Source of the DNA: Minisyncoccota bacterium | GTDB taxonomy: Bacteria; Patescibacteriota; Minisyncoccia; Phycocordibacterales; DAORIS01 | Reading direction: 5' to 3' | Assembly (NCBI GenBank): GCA_035438625.1 | Contig: DAORIS010000004.1 | Coordinates: 7,497 to 71,496, forward strand | Length of the DNA stretch: 64,000 nt | Shown: piece after piece, positions 24,680 to 36,174 of the stretch | How positions within the stretch are numbered: position 1 is the first letter of the stretch | Layout: the number at the start of each line of letters is the position of its first letter | Notes under the pieces: generated by a model | The model's database searches: none | What the model saw: only the letters and a program-made list of their open reading frames with translations | Told to the model about the DNA's origin: nothing | Position numbers and translations under genes: made by a program

Positions 24680-25258
24680 TTACCTTCCAATATGCCCAGT
24701 TGCCACCTTTACTGCAGCAGTAACTGCAAACTCAGCCCCAAGAATGGTCTGTACATCAATTTCCTCAAGTGGTAACCGCATCAAGCGTTCAATCGTCTCT
24801 GACATCTTTGGTAAGAAACCCGCAGCATAAAGCATCCTCGCTGAAGTCCACGATTCAAGTGCAGTACGAGTCTCAGGACCGTGGTCTGCCTTACCAACAG
24901 TCAATTTAAAAAATTCCGAAAGGGGAATATATATTCCAGACACAGGCTCATCATAAATTGTTATAGCCGAAGCAATCCAAGACAATCGCGCATACTCTTT
25001 ACGTCGTTTTGGATCAGGAGTTTGGAGGGTCACAATATCTGTTAACCTCCATACATTCCTTCCTCGAATCAACGACATCCTCGCTAAGGTATGTTCTGCG
25101 GCTCCCATGCGTAGTTTCGATGAAAGCTTTCGAAGGCTCTTTCCTACAACTGCAATTTTTCCAAAGCGTTCGGTTAGAACTATGAGCACCTTATCATCAG
25201 CACTCCTATCGTGAGCACCTAAAATAATTCCATCAACGGAGTAAATCTCATACGACAT
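24680..25258 (-). CDS. recO: Probable DNA repair protein RecO (short form).
   Basis: - The N-terminal OB-fold pattern (GIILGAHDRSADDKVLIVLTERFGKIAVVGKSLRKLSSKLRMGAAEHTLARMSLIRGRNVWRLTDI) resembles RecO.
- 192 aa is shorter than typical RecO. Confidence 0.45.
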   Translation of the reverse strand: MSYEIYSVDGIILGAHDRSADDKVLIVLTERFGKIAVVGKSLRKLSSKLRMGAAEHTLARMSLIRGRNVWRLTDIVTLQTPDPKRRKEYARLSWIASAITIYDEPVSGIYIPLSEFFKLTVGKADHGPETRTALESWTSARMLYAAGFLPKMSETIERLMRLPLEEIDVQTILGAEFAVTAAVKVATGHIGR

Positions 25259-28200
25259 GAATTGTTGCTTCCGTATGTTCTTTGGATAGTTCTATTTTGG
25301 AAGCGGAGACAGTATTTGCGAGTTCATCTTTCCACGTACCAAGTATTTGCTCCATTGCTTCTGTATCTGGCAATGAAACTGTAATTTTGTCTCCAGGTTG
25401 TAGCCCTGCTTCTTTACGCTTGTCTTGTATCAGACGGACCAAGTCTCTATATGATCCTTCAACAATAAGCTCTGGTGTAAGGGTCGTATCAAGTGAGACA
25501 GTGTCAGACTCACCTTCTGTAAAGACAACTTCTTTTACGTTAGTCTCTTCACTAATGAGGTGTTTATATTCTTCTTGCACATCTGGGTTCACGTGTGAAA
25601 ACACGTGGTTTGAACAAGAGATTTTTGTAAGTGGTTGGCGTACTTTTATGTTTGCCTTCATGCGTTCATCAAGTACTGCTGAGACAATAGTTCGAACAGA
25701 AGTCATTATTTCCATTCGTACTGTTCGTGCTTCTTTTTCTGTATTAGTAAGTTCTTGTATTTCAGGCCAGCTCGCAAGATGCACGCTTTCTGGATCGGAC
25801 TCCGTTTTCACAACAGCAAATATTCTCTCTGCAATAAATGGCATTGATGGAGCAATTGTTCGGCTAAACACATGTAGTACATGACGTAATACCGAAGCTG
25901 CAACAACTGCATCTTCGTCTTCATTCTTAAGTCTGTCTCGTGAGCGGCGTACGAACCACGTTGATAGATCATCTACAAATCCTTCAAGTGGTCGGAGTGC
26001 ATCATCAAGTGCATACATCTCCATATGTGTTGTAAATGTCTCAAGAGTTTCATTAAGTCGCTCTATTATCCACATATCCAAGACGCCCAAGTTTCTCGTA
26101 TTGAGCTCTCCATCCTTCACCTTATCTTTTGCGTACATTGAATAGAACGAAAGAACGTTTTCGAGTCGCAAGACAATCTTCTTGTAGATCGTATCTAGAT
26201 CCTTTTCAGCGAAGTTCATGTCTTCTGAACGCATCAATGGTGATGAGAGGAGATAGTAGCGGAGTGCGTCCACACCATATTTATCAAATGTAAGTGCAGG
26301 GTCAGGGAAATTATTCTTGGACTTAGACATTTTCTGTCCGTCTTCAGCAAGTACATTTCCTGTCGTTACAACGTGTTCAAACGGTGCCTTATCGAACAAC
26401 ATTGTTCCAAGCACATGCATGTAATAAAACCAGGTTCGTGTTTGTGCCAAATACTCAGCAACAAACTGTGCAGGAAAACGTTGTGCAAACACATCTTTGT
26501 TTTCCATTGGAAAATGCTGTGACGCAAAGGGCATTGAGCCCGATTCAAACCAACAGTCGATCACTTCTGGTATACGACGCATGACTCCTCCATTTCCATC
26601 CGAAAATACAATTTCATCTATATACGGTCGGTGAAGGTCGAGTTCGTAACATTCATTGTGAGGAATTGGTATGAAATTAAGTTCGCGACACTCTGCATTT
26701 TTCATGTAGTCTCCTTGTTTTGATGCGCGAAGGGCTGCAGCAGCTGGAACATCGAGTCCCCCCGCAACACTTTCCATGATCCATAGTGGTGATTCATGGC
26801 CAACAACCAAGACGGTATCGTTTTCATGTTTTGCGTATGTCTCGTATAAAAATTCACCTATACGCTGACGAACATCAGTGAGACTTTCCCCTCCTGGCAT
26901 TTTCTCAGCAAACGCTGCTGTATATGTCTCGTGGAGCTTGTGATACAAATGCACATCCTTCCCTTCAAGTTCTCCAAAAGAGACCTCTCTCAATCTCGGA
27001 TCAAATACCACTGATTCCTCAGAAAGCCCCAGTGCTTTCGCTACCTGTAACGCAGTTTCTTTGGTGCGTAAAATGTCAGAAGAATAAATATGTTTAATTC
27101 CCAACTTTTTTAATTCCGGTACAGCTGAAACCACCTGCTCTTTTCCAAGTTCAGTTAACGGATATGGTGCATGCAGATCAGCACTAAGAATGCCTTTAGC
27201 ATTATTCTCAGCCTGACCATGACGCATGACGAAGAAACGATTTTTCTTGTCTACCTTTGCCTTAAGCTCCGCAAGTGTCCCGATTACCTCAAATTTTCCA
27301 GTTTTTTCTGATTTCCATATTGGAAGCGGTGATGCCCAGAATCTGTTACGTGAAATGTTCCAGTCTGGTGCTCCTTCAGCACTCTTTCCGAATCGTCCAA
27401 GTTTCAAATGATCTGGTACCCAGTGGATATTCTCATTGAGTTCGAGGATTCGTGATTTTGATTTTTGGATGTTGATAAACCACGCTGGGATTGCGAAATA
27501 GAACAGAGGTGTGTCACATCGGTAACAGTGTGGATATGAGTGTGCAATTACTTCTTTAGCAAACAGAGTTCCAGCTCCTGCTAATTTTTTTATGATTTCA
27601 ATATCCATTACCTGATGATCTCCTGGCTTTTCAGGCTTCGGCTTTACGTGGCGACCCATCAAATCCTCTATCTCATCAGAAAACTTTCCTTCACTTGTCA
27701 CATGGTGTCTCCATGGAATACCTTCCTTCTTTGCCAAGTCCATGTCGTCTTCACCGTACCCTGGTGAAATGTGCACAACACCCGTTCCGCTTCCAGCCTC
27801 AACAAATGTTGCTGGATATATCTTCCATGCTTTGTATTTAGTATCTTCAAGGGCAGGATGTCCTACGAAATAATTAAAGAGTGGCTTGTATGAAAGGCCA
27901 AGCAGTTCTGTTCCAGGAAATTCTTTTTGTATAGAAATTTCATATCCACGTTTTACTAATACTTCTTCCACTCTATCTTTTGCAAGGATGATTGTATGTG
28001 TTTTTCCTTCTTTAGAAACCACTGCCTCTACGTATGAAAGTTCAGGGTTTATTGCAAGCGCAAAATTTCCCGGAAGAGTCCATGGTGTTGTTGTCCACGC
28101 GAGTACATGTACTCCAGGTCGATCGGTGAGTTCAAACAATACATACACAGAAATATCCCTGATATCTCTGTAGCTGTTATCCATCGCAATCTCAGAGTTT

Positions 28201-28769
28201 GCGATCGGTGTCTCACATCGTGGACAGTATGGAAGTACACGTGTACCCTCATATACATTTTGTTTCTCATTGAGTTCCTTAAGCGCCCACCAGACTGACT
28301 CAATATATGAGTTGTCCATTGTCTTATACGAACCATCAAAATCTACCCAACGACCAATACGCTCGACAGTCTCTTTCCAATCATGAACATAGCCGAGCAC
28401 CTTGCTTCGCGCATGTTCATTAAATTTTGCAATGCCGTATTTTTCAATTTCTTTTCGGCCAGCAATTTTCAGGTCTTTTTCAACGATATTTTCAATAGGT
28501 AGTCCGTGACAATCCCATCCCCATTTACGCTCAACACGATACCCTCGCATCGTTTTGTATCGAGGTACCATGTCTTTAATTGTGCTCGCAAGAATGTGTC
28601 CAAAGTGAGGAGTACCGGTTGCAAATGGTGGACCATCATAAAAGACATACTCACCGTTTGGTGCGTCTTTCTCTAAGGTCTTTTTGAAAAACTCACCGGT
28701 GCGCCAAAAATCGAGTACGCGTTCCTCGGCCTGCGCAACAGCGCTTTTAACTGGTTTTGTATCGCTCAT
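25248..28769 (-). CDS. ileS: Isoleucyl-tRNA synthetase with an inserted histidine-phosphatase (phosphoglycerate-mutase-like) domain.
   Basis: - HIGH motif (PFATGTPHFGH), CP1 editing domain (TTTPWTLPGN), WNISRNRFW, HRPYID, CWFESG and KMSKS (GQKMSKSKNN).
- Residues about 510-705 form a complete His_Phos_1-type domain (RFFVMRHGQAENN; LTELGKEQ; IYSSDILRTKETA; FGELEG; GESLTDVRQRIGEF; VLVVGHESPLWIM), inserted between PLPIW and HRPYID. Confidence 0.9.
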   Translation of the reverse strand: MSDTKPVKSAVAQAEERVLDFWRTGEFFKKTLEKDAPNGEYVFYDGPPFATGTPHFGHILASTIKDMVPRYKTMRGYRVERKWGWDCHGLPIENIVEKDLKIAGRKEIEKYGIAKFNEHARSKVLGYVHDWKETVERIGRWVDFDGSYKTMDNSYIESVWWALKELNEKQNVYEGTRVLPYCPRCETPIANSEIAMDNSYRDIRDISVYVLFELTDRPGVHVLAWTTTPWTLPGNFALAINPELSYVEAVVSKEGKTHTIILAKDRVEEVLVKRGYEISIQKEFPGTELLGLSYKPLFNYFVGHPALEDTKYKAWKIYPATFVEAGSGTGVVHISPGYGEDDMDLAKKEGIPWRHHVTSEGKFSDEIEDLMGRHVKPKPEKPGDHQVMDIEIIKKLAGAGTLFAKEVIAHSYPHCYRCDTPLFYFAIPAWFINIQKSKSRILELNENIHWVPDHLKLGRFGKSAEGAPDWNISRNRFWASPLPIWKSEKTGKFEVIGTLAELKAKVDKKNRFFVMRHGQAENNAKGILSADLHAPYPLTELGKEQVVSAVPELKKLGIKHIYSSDILRTKETALQVAKALGLSEESVVFDPRLREVSFGELEGKDVHLYHKLHETYTAAFAEKMPGGESLTDVRQRIGEFLYETYAKHENDTVLVVGHESPLWIMESVAGGLDVPAAAALRASKQGDYMKNAECRELNFIPIPHNECYELDLHRPYIDEIVFSDGNGGVMRRIPEVIDCWFESGSMPFASQHFPMENKDVFAQRFPAQFVAEYLAQTRTWFYYMHVLGTMLFDKAPFEHVVTTGNVLAEDGQKMSKSKNNFPDPALTFDKYGVDALRYYLLSSPLMRSEDMNFAEKDLDTIYKKIVLRLENVLSFYSMYAKDKVKDGELNTRNLGVLDMWIIERLNETLETFTTHMEMYALDDALRPLEGFVDDLSTWFVRRSRDRLKNEDEDAVVAASVLRHVLHVFSRTIAPSMPFIAERIFAVVKTESDPESVHLASWPEIQELTNTEKEARTVRMEIMTSVRTIVSAVLDERMKANIKVRQPLTKISCSNHVFSHVNPDVQEEYKHLISEETNVKEVVFTEGESDTVSLDTTLTPELIVEGSYRDLVRLIQDKRKEAGLQPGDKITVSLPDTEAMEQILGTWKDELANTVSASKIELSKEHTEATIHVV

Positions 28770-30555: not shown

Positions 30556-31305
30556 TTACTTTTTCTTCAGTATCTTTGAAACAACCTTGAGTACCTCCGC
30601 GTGTATTGCTTCTCGAGAAAGAATCTCACCATTATTCTCACATTCAATCTTATGCCACGCGTTATTTTTCTTTACGATCGAGAGTGCGCTTTGCCGTGAT
30701 TTTTCTAGGTGATCAACGTTAGTCTCTGCCTGATCCTTACTTGTTCCAAGATACTTCTTTTTACTCTTAAGTGCCTCTGCAGCGTGTTTTTCGGCAAGTA
30801 ACTTTTGTCCGAGTGTAACTGAAAGATTGAGATACACAATGGCGTCAGGTCGAGGAATTTTAAAAACACCGTGTTCCATCATGTCGAGCCAGGAGAGAAA
30901 TTCTGTTCGCTTTTTTTCATCAAGGATTTTTCCACCTTGATGAATCTGATTTGCACTCACATACCTATCAGAAATGACAACATATCCATCTTCTAGCCAT
31001 TTTTCGATCTGAGCTTTTGTTTCCCATCGATCAGCAGCATAGAGAACTGAAGCTATGTGCGGATCAACTGCGATGAAATCTCCATATTTTCCTGCCAAAC
31101 ATTCACCAATTAGTTTTCCAAAAAAATTATCGTAATATCTTGGAAAGTCTATTTTCTTAATCTTATATCCTGACTTTTTTAACGCTGCATCAAGTAACGT
31201 ACATTGTGTCGCCTTTCCTGTTCCATCGGTTCCATCAAGAACAATAAAAGTTCCTTTTCTTTTGATCGCTTTTGTTTGTTTCTTATTTACCGGCATGTGA
31301 GGCAA
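30556..31305 (-). CDS. tmk: Thymidylate kinase.
   Basis: - P-loop (FIVLDGTDGTGKATQ), DRY-like motif (ISDRY) and a lid region; 249 aa. Confidence 0.8.
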   Translation of the reverse strand: MPHMPVNKKQTKAIKRKGTFIVLDGTDGTGKATQCTLLDAALKKSGYKIKKIDFPRYYDNFFGKLIGECLAGKYGDFIAVDPHIASVLYAADRWETKAQIEKWLEDGYVVISDRYVSANQIHQGGKILDEKKRTEFLSWLDMMEHGVFKIPRPDAIVYLNLSVTLGQKLLAEKHAAEALKSKKKYLGTSKDQAETNVDHLEKSRQSALSIVKKNNAWHKIECENNGEILSREAIHAEVLKVVSKILKKK

Positions 31306-32479
31306 TATTTTTCTTCAAAATTGAGTCGATCTTTTGGGCAAGTTTGACCATGTCTTTCTCTTTCATTCCTGCAGTTGTGACAGCTGCTGTTCCAAGTCGA
31401 ATACCTGATGGGTCGCTTGGCTTTCGTTCATCAAATGGAATAGTGTTCTTGTTTACAATAATTCCAGCTTTCTCAAGTGCAGCGCTCGCATCTGAGCCAC
31501 CTATTCCTTGTCCTGAAATCCACGTGTCCACCAAAACCAAATGACTGTCTGTTCCTCGAGAAATGATACGCCATCCGCATTTTGCGAGTTCTTCTGCAAG
31601 CACACGCGCGTTTTTAACCACCTGCGCTGCATACTTCTTAAACTTTGGATTTGCAGCTTCTCTAAGAGCTACGGCAACTCCCGCAATCTGGTTCATGTGT
31701 GGACCACCCTGGAGACCTGGAAATACCGCACGATCAATTTTTTTAGACAACTCACGCTCATCAATTCGAGAGAAGATGATTCCACTTCGAGGTCCACGAA
31801 GTGTTTTATGAGTTGTGGTTGTAACTACATCAGCATATTTAAACGGTGATGGATATGCTCCACCAGCAACTAATCCTGCAACGTGCGACATATCAACCAT
31901 AAGTATTGATCCTGCCGCATCAGCAATGTCTCTAAATTTTTTAAAATCTATTACTCGTGGATAACATGTGTACCCAGCAACAATAAGTACCGGTTTTTCA
32001 GCTACAGCAATTCTTTTTAATTCTTCGTAATCTAATACTTCAGTATCTTTATTAACTCCATACGGAACTTGTTTCCAAAACTTCCCTGTCATTGATACAG
32101 AGTGTCCATGGGTTAGATGTCCACCGTGCGCAAGTTCCATTCCCATGATCTTTCCACCAATTGGAACGAGTGCAGAATACACTGCTAAGTTTGCGGGTGA
32201 ACCTGAAAGTGGCTGAACATTTACTCCCCATTTTTTTGGAGAAAGTCCAAATAGCAACAGTGCTCGCTCGCTACAGAGATCTTCTAGTTTATCCGTATTT
32301 GTCTGCCCTCCGTAATACCTTCGTCCTGAATACCCTTCTGCATACTTATTTACAAACTCTGAACCAAGCGCTTCAAGCACATCTTCTGAAACATCATTCT
32401 CTGAAGCAATCAAATTTATGACCGATTGCTGCCTTTTAACTTCATCCTTAATCAGTTTTGCTACTTGTGTGTCTTTCAT
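31283..32479 (-). CDS. glyA: Serine hydroxymethyltransferase.
   Basis: - LIASEN..., the PLP-lysine region (TTTTHKTLRGPRSG) and GGPH are present; 398 aa. Confidence 0.95.
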   Translation of the reverse strand: MKDTQVAKLIKDEVKRQQSVINLIASENDVSEDVLEALGSEFVNKYAEGYSGRRYYGGQTNTDKLEDLCSERALLLFGLSPKKWGVNVQPLSGSPANLAVYSALVPIGGKIMGMELAHGGHLTHGHSVSMTGKFWKQVPYGVNKDTEVLDYEELKRIAVAEKPVLIVAGYTCYPRVIDFKKFRDIADAAGSILMVDMSHVAGLVAGGAYPSPFKYADVVTTTTHKTLRGPRSGIIFSRIDERELSKKIDRAVFPGLQGGPHMNQIAGVAVALREAANPKFKKYAAQVVKNARVLAEELAKCGWRIISRGTDSHLVLVDTWISGQGIGGSDASAALEKAGIIVNKNTIPFDERKPSDPSGIRLGTAAVTTAGMKEKDMVKLAQKIDSILKKNIASHAGK

Positions 32480-32521
32480 TGCAGCCGCAATTCTAGCATG
32501 TCTGAAACCTGTGTTCCTTGT

Positions 32522-32557
32522 ACAAAAAACCGCACCATCTTCGTAAGACAGTGCGGT
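32522..32557 (-). terminator. Rho-independent terminator (minus strand).
   Basis: - An interrupted hairpin (accgcac..tctt-cgt-aaga..gtgcggt) followed on the minus strand by UUUUUUGU.
- Directly downstream of gene 32569..33336. Confidence 0.55.
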
Positions 32558-32568
32558 AGTAATCTAGT

Positions 32569-33336
32569 TTATGTAGCTCCCACCAATACTTCCTTCTCCT
32601 TCTGTTTTTCAACGCTAGCGAATTCCAGTTCGTCCCCATCGATTACGGTGATACTCACACCTGCCGGGACAACGCAATTAAACCGTATTCGGTCCTTCTC
32701 GGTGACCGTAAGATCCTTGCCTCCAATCTTGACAGTGTTAATCAATCCAATGTTTCCCTTCGATATGAATTGACCGTCGTAGAGAACGTAGGCAGCAATT
32801 TCTGGACTGCCATTAGGAACAAAGTTCCAATTAACCACCCAGATGTTTTGCAACACCTCTTGAGGTATTGAGTGTCCAAACGTCGGCAGAAGACGTGCGA
32901 ACAAAACACGTGCATCTGTGAACATATCGTTCAACCAATCGTACCCGTTTGTCTTTTCGTGCGGAACCATAAGACATGCAGCAGCATGTGGATGCGCACT
33001 TGACCCAACCGACACCTCAGGAACTGCTGCTTGTTCATCGTACAAGAACGAACGAGAATCGCGTGTAATACGATCAGTGACCGTACACACCACTCGATTC
33101 TCGTGGTGCTCAACAAGAACTTCAAACATCTGAGAAAACTTCAGTAACTGTTCCGGCGACAATTCACAGTACGCATCAGCACAGTCACCTCCTTCAGTTA
33201 CGAGCGCCAATCCGTCAGTGTACCTGATGATGTCATCGGGTACATTCAGTTGCTGCACAAGTACCGGCGGCAAACCTCTGACAAAGCGCGCACAAGCAGA
33301 AACGATCTTCCTAGGCCAGAGTACATACCTTGACAT
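32569..33336 (-). CDS. Hypothetical protein of 255 aa, probably co-transcribed with thyX-like and dcd.
   Basis: - No recognisable motif.
- Short intergenic distances to the upstream thyX-like and dcd genes.
- Its own terminator lies downstream. Confidence 0.5.
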   Translation of the reverse strand: MSRYVLWPRKIVSACARFVRGLPPVLVQQLNVPDDIIRYTDGLALVTEGGDCADAYCELSPEQLLKFSQMFEVLVEHHENRVVCTVTDRITRDSRSFLYDEQAAVPEVSVGSSAHPHAAACLMVPHEKTNGYDWLNDMFTDARVLFARLLPTFGHSIPQEVLQNIWVVNWNFVPNGSPEIAAYVLYDGQFISKGNIGLINTVKIGGKDLTVTEKDRIRFNCVVPAGVSITVIDGDELEFASVEKQKEKEVLVGAT

Positions 33337-33383
33337 GACTCCTCCATGGTTTGAGACGACAAGGTGCTTACCCCTTAACGCTA

Positions 33384-34679
33384 CTACCTTTCCTTAATGT
33401 CGTGAAGCCCCCTACGCACATCCCAATCATCTAAACTTAAATCAGGATGTAGTGTCACCTCTGGAAATCTTCTACTCATAAATCGATACATTTTATGTGC
33501 AACCGCCCGAAGTGTTGCATGCACCGTTTTTCCAGAGCGTAGTTCCATGACGTATGTCGCAGCAGGAAGACCGTATGTCATCTTTGCTGAAACTAGAAAT
33601 CCCATCGCGCAATAATATTGTTTTTCATCAGCATTTGCAGGAAGTGCGTTTATTGACTGTCGCTGTAATTTAATTAGAGCTTCAGCTTCCTCACGTACAT
33701 CCACAGGAAGCGCCTCTAGATACCATTTTTCAAATCCGAAACTTGTACCAAGTCGTGGCATGCGACAGACACCATTTCTGTGACGTTGGAGATCTCTGAA
33801 CGATCCAAAGTCGATTAGACACTCAAAAGAAAGTTCGCCAAGTTCAGTTAGTATGTGAGGGAGTACAGCTTTCGCAGGACGATTTTTTAATATTTTTTTA
33901 AATGGCTTAAGGTCAGCGTTTCTAATTGTCGTCATTGCAGCAAAACCACTTGGAACTCGTTTTCCAGTGTAGTACGTGAGAGTTTCTGCAACTGTTTTTC
34001 GGTATTCTTCCTGCTCTTCATATACCTTATGCGCAAAGCTATGACCATATTTAGCCCTCAACTGCTTCAATATTTCTTCTGCAACATCACGCACCTCTTT
34101 AAGTGGGTGATATACAAGCGAGGACAGTTTATCGTGTGCTTGGCGCAAATTTGTGTGCCATGAAAGCTGCGTAGTCACACCAGCTGGTAGAAATCCTCGC
34201 AAGATATCAAACGATCGCGCGACAACTGCCTTTTCATACACCACTTCGTTTTCATCTGGTTTTTTAGGAAACGTATCTCGCACGTGATCCTTTACTGCTT
34301 CCTGCGAAGAAATATAAAAGTTCATCCAACGCTCAAGGATAGCTTTTGATTCTGGAGTTTGTACTGGATCCTTGATTGGCTGAGCAGCCATATTGATATA
34401 CCTCGAGCTTGTTTCTTGTCCTGAGTATAGTGGCCAATCTTGAACTGCTTTTGCAACAAGCATCGAAACACCTTCAATAAAAATAGTAGTGGATCCACAG
34501 TCAGCAATACTTGCGTGACCATACCCGACATAGAATTTTTCCATGAAAGATCCTGAGCCTGTCTCACGAACTTTTTCCACGTGCTCAGTTACACTCTTTG
34601 CACTTCGTGAATAAAGGGCTTGCATCATGGCAGTATCTTCAGGTCCGAATTCGTCGTAGATGTGGATGCGGGGTGCCAT
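33384..34679 (-). CDS. thyX: ThyX-like (Thy1-domain) flavin-dependent thymidylate synthase with a tandemly duplicated domain.
   Basis: - The first half has a ThyX-like segment (HASIADCGSTTIFIEGVSMLVAKAVQDWPLYSGQETSSRY) that resembles the ThyX core but lacks the RHR motif.
- The second half carries FRDLQRHRNG (RHR motif) and a ThyX-like C-terminal helix region.
- 431 aa is about twice a canonical ThyX. Confidence 0.45.
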   Translation of the reverse strand: MAPRIHIYDEFGPEDTAMMQALYSRSAKSVTEHVEKVRETGSGSFMEKFYVGYGHASIADCGSTTIFIEGVSMLVAKAVQDWPLYSGQETSSRYINMAAQPIKDPVQTPESKAILERWMNFYISSQEAVKDHVRDTFPKKPDENEVVYEKAVVARSFDILRGFLPAGVTTQLSWHTNLRQAHDKLSSLVYHPLKEVRDVAEEILKQLRAKYGHSFAHKVYEEQEEYRKTVAETLTYYTGKRVPSGFAAMTTIRNADLKPFKKILKNRPAKAVLPHILTELGELSFECLIDFGSFRDLQRHRNGVCRMPRLGTSFGFEKWYLEALPVDVREEAEALIKLQRQSINALPANADEKQYYCAMGFLVSAKMTYGLPAATYVMELRSGKTVHATLRAVAHKMYRFMSRRFPEVTLHPDLSLDDWDVRRGLHDIKER

Positions 34680-34704
34680 GATGGAATATTAAATTTGTAA
34701 CTGG

Positions 34705-35796
34705 TTATTTAAAATATTTAGCCAATTTTGGACCACTCTGTTGCAAGTAATTGGACTGGATGGTGTCGTAAATTTCTTCGGCCTCATCAGTCAACCGTTC
34801 AAAACGGATCTTTCCGATTGGCTGTCCTTTACGAATCACCAAATCTTCAAACGGCCGCACCTCGAGTGTGAGCGGTCGTCCCTTGCCCTCTCCTTTTACT
34901 CCCCAACCCCATCCTGGATCGATAAAACCAGCGTAGTGCGATCGAAACTCACCACTGCGTTCATCCATAGGCACCATCTCACAAGCAAGGTTTGGAGGGA
35001 CGCGTACAAACTCGTGGGTTGAAAGGATATAGAACGATCCCTGTTTTAGGACAAGTGAATCTCCCTGCTTCTTGATTGGTTTAAAAAACTTACTCGATGC
35101 ATATTCTCCAATACGTGTAATGTCGAGTACCCCTTCTCCTGGACGGCCTTCGTATCCGATTGGGTCACTATCAAGGTCGAGTGTGAGGATTAGCGATCCA
35201 TCGTTATCCCAGATCTTCAGGTCTGATCTGTCGTACGGCTTTCCCTTTGGACTCCACAGTAACTTATCCCCCATGAGTGCAATTTCAACTTCTAAGTTTG
35301 AAAGACGAGTGTCGTGAGTAAAGAAACGTAGTTGGTTTAATGAAAGTCCTGGTGCAACTTTAATCGGAAAGGTTTTAGGAGTGATTGCCACCCAGAGTGA
35401 TCCTTTATATCCATGTGGGATTGAGTCATAGCGACACACACCATCTGCCATCAAGCGCACATGCACATCAACTCTTCCACTCGTTGATTTTGGGTTACAG
35501 AATGCATACACCAATTCAGGTAAGTTTAATTTTTCCTGTAACTTTGCAACATAATGCGATCCAACTTTTAGTGGCTCATTAATTGAGTGTCGTTTCTTTG
35601 AAACTTTTTCTAATACTTTCTCAACTGTCTCGCGTTTGTTGGGGAGGAATATTCCACTAACTTCGTAAATCTCATCAGTGAGTGAGACGTCTAAAGAGGA
35701 GGGTTTAATGTTTTGTTCAACAGCACCTTTGACTGCGCCTGCTTTGACCAATTCTCTGATTATCTGTATCGGTAGTGCTCCCTGCTTTACTGACAT
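34705..35796 (-). CDS. dcd: dCTP deaminase, long (about 360 aa, DCD family) form.
   Basis: - The dUTPase/dCTP-deaminase superfamily motif AGFIDPGWGWGVKG is present.
- Overall length and layout match the long 2'-deoxycytidine 5'-triphosphate deaminase family. Confidence 0.6.
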   Translation of the reverse strand: MSVKQGALPIQIIRELVKAGAVKGAVEQNIKPSSLDVSLTDEIYEVSGIFLPNKRETVEKVLEKVSKKRHSINEPLKVGSHYVAKLQEKLNLPELVYAFCNPKSTSGRVDVHVRLMADGVCRYDSIPHGYKGSLWVAITPKTFPIKVAPGLSLNQLRFFTHDTRLSNLEVEIALMGDKLLWSPKGKPYDRSDLKIWDNDGSLILTLDLDSDPIGYEGRPGEGVLDITRIGEYASSKFFKPIKKQGDSLVLKQGSFYILSTHEFVRVPPNLACEMVPMDERSGEFRSHYAGFIDPGWGWGVKGEGKGRPLTLEVRPFEDLVIRKGQPIGKIRFERLTDEAEEIYDTIQSNYLQQSGPKLAKYFK

Positions 35797-35884: not shown

Positions 35885-36106
35885 TTATGCCTGAGTCAAC
35901 CAAGACTGATACGCACGATGTGCGCTTGCTAGTATCCGTCGAAGTTTTTTCTCCGCCTTGGATTTTGACACAGGATCAGGAGCATTTTCACATGCGAGCT
36001 TTGCCTGTTCGCAGGCATTTTTCCATTCTGGACTTTCGTCCAAAAATTTCACGAATCCATCATCCATTGCACGAATCGCATGATCAACACGTTCTTGTGC
36101 ACACAT
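35885..36106 (-). CDS. Small hypothetical protein (73 aa).
   Basis: - The only ORF in the 425-nt gap between dcd and rplK.
- Flanked by terminator-like hairpins on both sides; charged helical composition. Confidence 0.4.
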   Translation of the reverse strand: MCAQERVDHAIRAMDDGFVKFLDESPEWKNACEQAKLACENAPDPVSKSKAEKKLRRILASAHRAYQSWLTQA

Positions 36107-36174
36107 ACGATCAATCTCCTTTTCTGTACTATATTATACCAAATATAGCTTAAAAGTCAATAGACCCTTTGGTA

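Follow-up and report, generated by a model that had tools for sequence, protein, structure and literature searches.

Does an uncharacterised protein that stands exactly where a thymidylate-synthesis cluster lacks an enzyme supply the missing step? The question is raised by positions 30556-35796 of a 64-kb stretch of DNA (hereafter the window, meaning the whole analysed stretch) from a metagenome-assembled genome (MAG) of Candidatus Paceibacterota, a member of the candidate phyla radiation (CPR). The open reading frame (ORF) listing places there, on the minus strand, five consecutive co-oriented genes, dcdL, a thyX-like gene, unk255, glyA and tmk, all of them at the positions given by an earlier sequence-only reading, and NCBI already names the four enzymes among them. 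That reading had proposed that the fifth product, unk255, might be a non-canonical dUTPase acting between dUTP and dUMP. The likely answer from the present analysis is that the locus is an ordinary thymidylate operon, and that unk255 is a fast-evolving, lineage-restricted orphan without evidence for a hidden dUTPase role. In order along the minus strand, the five genes are:

34705-35796, minus strand: dcdL, long two-domain dCTP deaminase of 363 aa (DCD_N and DCD_C domains).
33384-34679, minus strand: thyX-long, flavin-dependent thymidylate synthase homologue of 431 aa; the N-terminal half is a ThyX domain and the C-terminal half an extension.
32569-33336, minus strand: unk255, orphan of 255 aa (NCBI hypothetical protein PLF31_02190), predicted last gene of the dcdL-thyX unit.
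31283-32479, minus strand: glyA, serine hydroxymethyltransferase (SHMT) of 398 aa (PF00464, 526.8 bits; NF000586, 526 bits against a cutoff of 335).
30556-31296, minus strand: tmk, dTMP kinase of 246 aa from its ATG, as called by JGI.

With gene assignments made by homology, the region probably represents a housekeeping pyrimidine-deoxynucleotide operon of Candidatus Paceibacterota. The long dcdL product would make dUTP from dCTP, ThyX-long would methylate dUMP to dTMP with methylene-tetrahydrofolate (methylene-THF) provided by SHMT, and Tmk would phosphorylate dTMP to dTDP. Unk255 probably does not belong to the pathway enzymes; in our working view it would be an accessory protein without catalytic role, dispensable to the cell and carried along by an operon that is strongly expressed. 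Families were assigned with the Pfam and NCBIfam libraries, and for unk255 and a small upstream gene, orf73, also with PHROG and PADLOC. These searches and the synteny described below bear out the earlier allocation of four genes to the dCTP deaminase, ThyX, SHMT and dTMP kinase steps within a conserved functional neighbourhood. The window was further searched for missing enzymes in all frames, using phmmer with reference proteins and profile hidden Markov models (HMMs) built from Patescibacteria relatives, and dut, thyA, folA, dCMP deaminase and MazG were detectable in no frame of the 64 kb. The observation that no enzyme for the dUTP-to-dUMP step is recognised in the cluster was thus sound, neither dut nor MazG being present in the window.

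That unk255 is a real gene follows from three observations: its codon score (+0.135 in frame, as compared to −0.54 and −0.69 for the two alternative frames), a strong ribosome-binding site of its own (GGAGGAG, 5 nt before the ATG), and a distant homologue in the same slot of another genome. Its GC content at third codon positions is 0.48, and 0.49 in that relative, as compared to 0.29-0.40 in the neighbouring genes. Searches with the protein returned no Pfam, NCBIfam, PHROG or PADLOC family, and no phage or viral homologues among GenBank phages or in IMG/VR; the flanks of the gene had no integron-like or mobile-element repeats. Profile comparison (hhalign) with Dut, MazG, Nudix, dcdL, dCMP deaminase and P-loop kinase gave probabilities below 1% throughout, including 0.5% for the Dut profile and 0.2% for the MazG profile of the relatives, so that no dUTPase class was matched in a comparison of the kind that the sequence-only reading had suggested. 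The protein had no match to the trimeric dUTPases (PF00692) or to PF03819 and, by Pfam scan only, none to the dimeric dUTPases (PF08761). One match was discounted: residues 188-237 aligned with repeats of a 4,211-aa adhesin at E = 9.5e-14, as if to an Ig-like domain, but this value adds up about 18 weak and nearly identical hits, each scoring 5.8-9.6 bits.

A k-mer search with unk255 found only the protein itself, and an exhaustive HMMER search of 1.84 billion representative proteins returned a single full-length relative, P0123 (E = 2.6e-5, 22% identity), of 214 aa (235 aa as P0131). This relative occupies the identical slot in a sister species (locus L084), in which the neighbouring products are nearly unchanged from those of the window (identities of 98% for dcdL, 97% for thyX, 94% for glyA, and 100% for both nusG and rplK). 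By the Nei-Gojobori method, comparison of the window with L084 gave a dN (nonsynonymous substitutions per site) of 0.91 for unk255, exceeding the values for the enzymes on either side 24- to 76-fold (0.012 for dcdL, 0.020 for thyX and 0.038 for glyA). The dS (synonymous substitutions per site) of the flanking genes was about 0.5-1.6, and the dN/dS ratio (omega) of unk255 was roughly 0.6-1. The gene evolves close to neutrally and is barely constrained. Allelic replacement between strains, considered for the sharp loss of nucleotide homology at unk255, was rejected, because the flanking dS indicates well-diverged genomes for which near-neutral divergence suffices.

The setting of the gene was compared, by tblastn and ORF clustering, across 80 Patescibacteria loci (L003-L082) obtained from a genome scan; with the window and L084, 82 loci were tabulated. 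The arrangement recurs in the 80 loci in the order nusG–rplK–(dcdL or dCMP deaminase)–thyX-long–variable slot–glyA and/or tmk–argS–ileS. Between thyX-long and glyA the slot is variable and holds different genes or none depending on the lineage; in most of the 80 loci thyX-long directly adjoins glyA or tmk, and in many the gap is at most about 20 nt, with nothing encoded between them. Unk255 is absent from all 80 syntenic loci. In the next relative (L085/L086), which carries dcdL and a thyX 69% identical to that of the window, two orphans of 142 and 107 aa, neither related to unk255, take the slot, and further orphans lie between glyA and tmk. A gene positioned at a missing step can be a mere orphan in a variable slot, and we advise caution in reading function from such a position.

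Other contents of the slot and its surroundings illustrate this variability. P-loop kinases, DHFR, Nudix, thymidine kinase and toxin-antitoxin-like genes were encountered in the loci. In the dcdL-bearing locus L045 (8900-9914), a NUDIX hydrolase stands between thyX and glyA, and after it come ORFs of 93 and 75 aa that by eye look like a HicB/HicA-type toxin-antitoxin pair. In L060 (8043-8792) and L073 (9390-10124), the slot is occupied by a protein of about 245 aa, all-helical, rich in Cys and unrelated to unk255; a MazG-like appearance, noted by eye, was dropped as there was no Pfam match and an HH probability of 2.6%. In several relatives Dut is fused to other domains: it occurs within ORFs of 360-420 aa in L011, L022, L055 and L064, and in L075 (9369-10262) a P-loop kinase is fused to Dut in a 297-aa protein.

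Two either/or patterns emerged from the 82 loci. Of these, 10 had dcdL and 44 had dCMP deaminase, with no overlap; likewise, no locus combined canonical Dut (31 loci) with a 109-aa MazG (13 loci), as a Pfam check confirmed. Such patterns point to modules that can stand in for one another in supplying dUMP and in removing dUTP, and the alternations may be of interest as possible module exchange in minimal genomes. The trimeric dUTPase (Dut, PF00692), detected nowhere in the window, is part of the cluster in five further loci that carry dcdL (L005, L008, L009, L018 and L045), and in L009 dut is directly next to dcdL. The proposal of a self-contained ThyX-based pathway was overstated: the locus is one variant of a widespread, modular nucleotide island of the Patescibacteria. 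As a finding the cluster amounts to routine annotation of a ThyX-based dTMP operon, and it is not special.

With this background, a non-canonical dUTPase that replaced Dut in the lineage, as the sequence-only reading had it, is a very unlikely identity for unk255. Its location does speak for it: the gene lies between thyX and glyA in an island of nucleotide metabolism, in a predicted transcription unit shared with dcdL and thyX, relatives hold Dut, MazG or Nudix genes in nearby slots, the window has no known dUTPase, and the ORF is intact in two species. However, an essential dUTPase would be expected to be as constrained as its neighbours, and the dN of unk255 exceeds theirs by more than an order of magnitude; moreover, lineages with the same enzymes lack the gene. 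Equally adverse are the single full-length relative, the lack of a family match or of similarity to any dUTPase class tested, the unrelated orphans that fill the slot in the outgroup with the dcdL-thyX arrangement, and the dut genes of the five dcdL loci. Nor do the two alleles, unk255 and its L084 relative, have an evident conserved acidic metal-binding motif in common.

Alternatively, unk255 could be a partner or modulator of dcdL or ThyX (an assembly factor, inhibitor or decoy) that evolves fast through conflict with phage or a host. Its place as last gene of the dcdL-thyX unit, the retention of the slot in the sister species despite extreme divergence, and an ORF still intact after a dS of about 1, which implies some selection, are in keeping with such a role. 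A co-evolving partner of enzymes that are 97-98% identical would not be expected to fall to 22%, though, and unk255 is missing wherever else these enzymes occur and matched no defence or phage family. We give this explanation a low probability.

How unk255 is transcribed bears on both proposals, and involves three further features:

36133-36160, minus strand: promoter-like site, TTGACT, 16 nt, TG-TATAAT (11 of 12 consensus matches, extended −10).
35885-36106, minus strand: orf73, lineage-specific small protein of 73 aa between rplK and dcdL (JGI gene call).
32529-32557, minus strand: intrinsic-terminator-like hairpin (13-bp stem, 3-nt loop, T6), 12 nt after the unk255 stop.

The promoter-like site, upstream of orf73 and dcdL, is the strongest in the region, is conserved in L084 at 5113-5140, and is the probable start of a transcription unit. 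In L084, a hairpin with a T-run stands at the position equivalent to that of the terminator, with a different stem sequence. Since the promoter-like site precedes orf73 and the terminator follows unk255, two units may be proposed: the first from the promoter through orf73, dcdL, thyX and unk255 to the terminator, and the second comprising glyA and tmk, possibly with argS. An Rfam scan of 28-38 kb returned nothing above the gathering score, and no riboswitch. The upstream gene orf73 is present also in L084 and in a third contig, with conserved length and 64% identity between species (dN 0.23, dS 0.55, dN/dS about 0.4); it had no Pfam family in the JGI precomputed annotation and no significant PHROG or PADLOC family.

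Several points weigh against regarding unk255 as an orphan in an ordinary operon. Two species separated by a dS of about 1 have both kept the ORF intact, and this, together with its kept position and the position-conserved terminator, argues for some retained function. It falls within the putative dcdL-thyX unit, in an island enriched in nucleotide enzymes, so some pathway-linked role is possible. The promoter and terminator are known from consensus matches only, and the AlphaFold2 (AF2) model of unk255, built from a two-sequence alignment, has a mean confidence (pLDDT) of 31.6, too low for fold comparison. Finally, dut was found neither in the 64-kb window nor within 10 kb of the cluster in L084, L085 and L044, and Dut may be truly absent from this clade. 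In the extreme case, canonical Dut would have been lost from the lineage to which the window, L084 and the contig mentioned third belong, and the fast-evolving family of unk255 and P0123 would be a new, structurally unrelated dUTP-handling protein or an obligate partner making dcdL release dUMP, a scenario to which we attach very little probability.

For the dUTP-to-dUMP step in the ordinary operon, then, four sources can be ranked. With modest confidence we favour a canonical trimeric Dut whose gene lies beyond the 64 kb of the window; a canonical dut is the rule among relatives. The Dut profile built from relatives matched at least 7,998 proteins at E ≤ 1e-10 in a collection of 5.8 billion proteins, and among the 120 matches listed none was tied to this MAG. 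That dcdL itself carries out the step, as a bifunctional deaminase/dUTPase, is a tentative second choice; another nucleoside triphosphate (NTP) pyrophosphatase encoded elsewhere is improbable, and a contribution by unk255 is more improbable still.

The long deaminase carries both Pfam domains (DCD_N PF06559, 8e-42; DCD_C PF22569, 2e-41), scored 282.2 bits against the NCBIfam equivalog NF005734 (cutoff 283, hence 0.8 bit short), and is 98% identical in L084. Residues 28-363 of its 363 aligned with PDB entry 2r9q (E = 2e-52), the long deaminase of A. tumefaciens, which has the same two-domain architecture (PF06559/PF22569). It would convert dCTP to dUTP, or possibly yield dUMP if it were bifunctional. 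Bifunctional Dcd:Dut enzymes occur in M. jannaschii and M. tuberculosis. The C-terminal domain of dcdL is homologous to these, aligning with the M. tuberculosis structure 2qxx (E = 4e-4) and keeping the Asp of FIDPG and the Glu of TLE; dcdL is nevertheless distant from them, in that it has two domains and is not a homotrimer of single domains.

If dcdL were bifunctional it would release dUMP directly, so that no step would be missing and neither Dut nor unk255 would be needed for the flux to dTMP. Besides the conserved residues, such a function would fit its alternation with the dUMP-producing dCMP deaminase at the equivalent position (10 against 44 loci, none with both) and the four dcdL lineages (the window, L084, L085 and L044) that have no dut within at least 10 kb. 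On the other hand, the FIDPG and TLE residues are common to monofunctional Dcd and do not discriminate between the two, and five dcdL loci retain canonical dut in the cluster, adjacent in L009. A narrow literature search (2R9Q and dCTP deaminase) found no paper on, or biochemical characterisation of, the long DCD form. Bifunctionality appears less likely than not. As a separate observation, dcdL looks internally duplicated with its motifs divided, KSTSGR in the N-terminal domain and FIDPG...TLE in the C-terminal domain.

The second enzyme differs from its canonical counterpart. Canonical ThyX is about 220-250 aa long, as compared to 431 aa in ThyX-long, which is 97% identical in L084. ThyX-long passed the Pfam Thy1 model (PF02511, 63.8 bits against a gathering score of 24.8) over residues 17-209 only and remained below the NCBIfam equivalog TIGR02170 (27.0 bits against 87.9); the C-terminal half alone had no Thy1 Pfam match. 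The earlier designation of the protein as ThyX-like was thereby upheld. Relatives of the 431-aa form number more than 4,900 at about 60-69% identity, essentially all in Patescibacteria. Some are fused N-terminally to dCMP deaminase (P0049, P0088), which argues for dUMP as the substrate of ThyX-long.

The N-terminal half aligned end to end with canonical ThyX (T. maritima TM0449; M. tuberculosis 2af6 and 3gwc), and in a family profile residues 47-218 aligned with ThyX of C. glutamicum and M. tuberculosis. For residue comparison, the T. maritima sequence was used in what we take to be its correct form, its numbering matching the published H53, R78, H79, R80, E86, S88, R90, R147, R174 and H178. 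On this presumed sequence, the N-terminal half keeps H55, E89, S91, R93, Y94 and R161 (T. maritima H53, E86, S88, R90, Y91 and R147), RHR of T. maritima 78-80 is replaced by an invariant DWP, and R174 is lost. Invariance was judged on alignments of 22 and 79 homologues. The C-terminal half (about 220-431) has invariant RHR at 299-301, ELR at 379-381 and H387. The signature RHRxxxxxxxS(x)RY is thus not contiguous in any one domain: the N-terminal domain has DWPLYSGQETSSRY, with S, R and Y kept, RHR 299-301 stands without the S/RY part, and only by combining both halves is the motif complete. Taken together, the halves supply every residue that is known to contact dUMP or FAD in the T. maritima enzyme. 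As compared to canonical ThyX, RHR and ELR...H lie instead in a C-terminal half of about 210 aa without sequence-detectable Thy1 similarity.

The AF2 model of ThyX-long was of good quality (pLDDT 86.3, predicted TM-score 0.83), and Foldseek comparison of the model with the PDB gave 13 matches at E ≤ 0.001, all to ThyX chains, the matched half not being specified. The best was 2af6 (4e-5, target-normalised TM-score about 0.5), and the weaker matches listed were ThyX or the ThyX-fold methylase PolB. In the C-terminal half, the predicted order of strands and helices repeats that of the ThyX core. At the sequence level, hhalign of the N-terminal against the C-terminal half aligned the last helix only (E = 0.0055, probability 6.6%), and the C-terminal half had no match when compared with T. 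maritima ThyX or with Pfam and PDB sequences.

From its motifs, the predicted secondary-structure order and a remark in the literature, ThyX-long looks internally duplicated, with the motifs split between the halves. The remark, by Valas and Bourne (2009, PMC3224940), concerns a duplicated, uncharacterised ThyX in Chloroflexi, to which ThyX-long may be likened. We infer that ThyX-long is a pseudo-dimer with halves complementing each other, and that two such chains, once paired, would resemble the ThyX tetramer but have only half as many complete active sites. This prediction of a pseudo-tetramer from split motifs may interest specialists in a form of ThyX, about 430 aa long, that is very common yet uncharacterised. 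DcdL and ThyX-long both resemble duplicated versions of normally homo-oligomeric enzymes with catalytic motifs divided between halves.

It may be asked whether the cluster makes a modified pyrimidine nucleotide in place of dTMP, with a ThyX homologue of different chemistry, as in the ThyX-like methylase PolB. The low TIGR02170 score (27 against 87.9), the absence of the canonical ThyX motif from any single domain, and a Tmk below the equivalog cutoffs could be read in that way. Against this, nearly all Patescibacteria have a ThyX-long, and the family, with more than 4,900 members at about 60% identity, is highly conserved; its members always occur with SHMT, Tmk and enzymes that yield dUMP, none of the 82 loci had another thymidylate synthase, and the residues contacting dUMP and FAD in T. 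maritima ThyX are all present across both halves. We regard a modified nucleotide as extremely improbable. The dCMP deaminase fusions and the invariant genomic company of dUMP supply, SHMT and Tmk, which is that expected for ThyX, support a thymidylate synthase function of ThyX-long.

The remaining two enzymes are SHMT and Tmk. SHMT membership of the glyA product was evident in both Pfam and NCBIfam, and the protein is 94% identical in L084. The first 14 nt of tmk are shared with the 3′ end of glyA; an alternative TTG start would give 249 aa (30556-31305), the ATG at 31296 being the more likely. Tmk scored 67.9 bits against PF02223 (gathering score 27) and has the P-loop GTDGTGKAT, but was below the NCBIfam cutoffs for TIGR00041 (76.4 against 83.25) and NF005923 (111.6 against 193). 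Its orthologues in the equivalent cluster of relatives are 53-66% identical.

Between the window and L084 (9900-10562), however, the identity of Tmk is only 32%, as compared to 94% and 87% for the flanking glyA and argS, respectively. The Tmk of the window groups with one Patescibacteria type (66% identity to L005), that of L084 with another (55% to L085), and the first ten or so tmk codons are still similar between the two. This looks like an in-situ xenologous replacement of an essential gene between sister species, judging from the sequences, and may be of specialist interest as an essential-gene swap.

Outside the cluster, nusG and rplK are located upstream, and argS and an unusually long ileS downstream. 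The latter (25248-28769, minus strand, 1,173 aa) has a histidine-phosphatase domain (PF00300, RHG motif) inserted within the class-I catalytic region, and the same insertion was found in L084 (1,170 aa) and L085 (1,236 aa).

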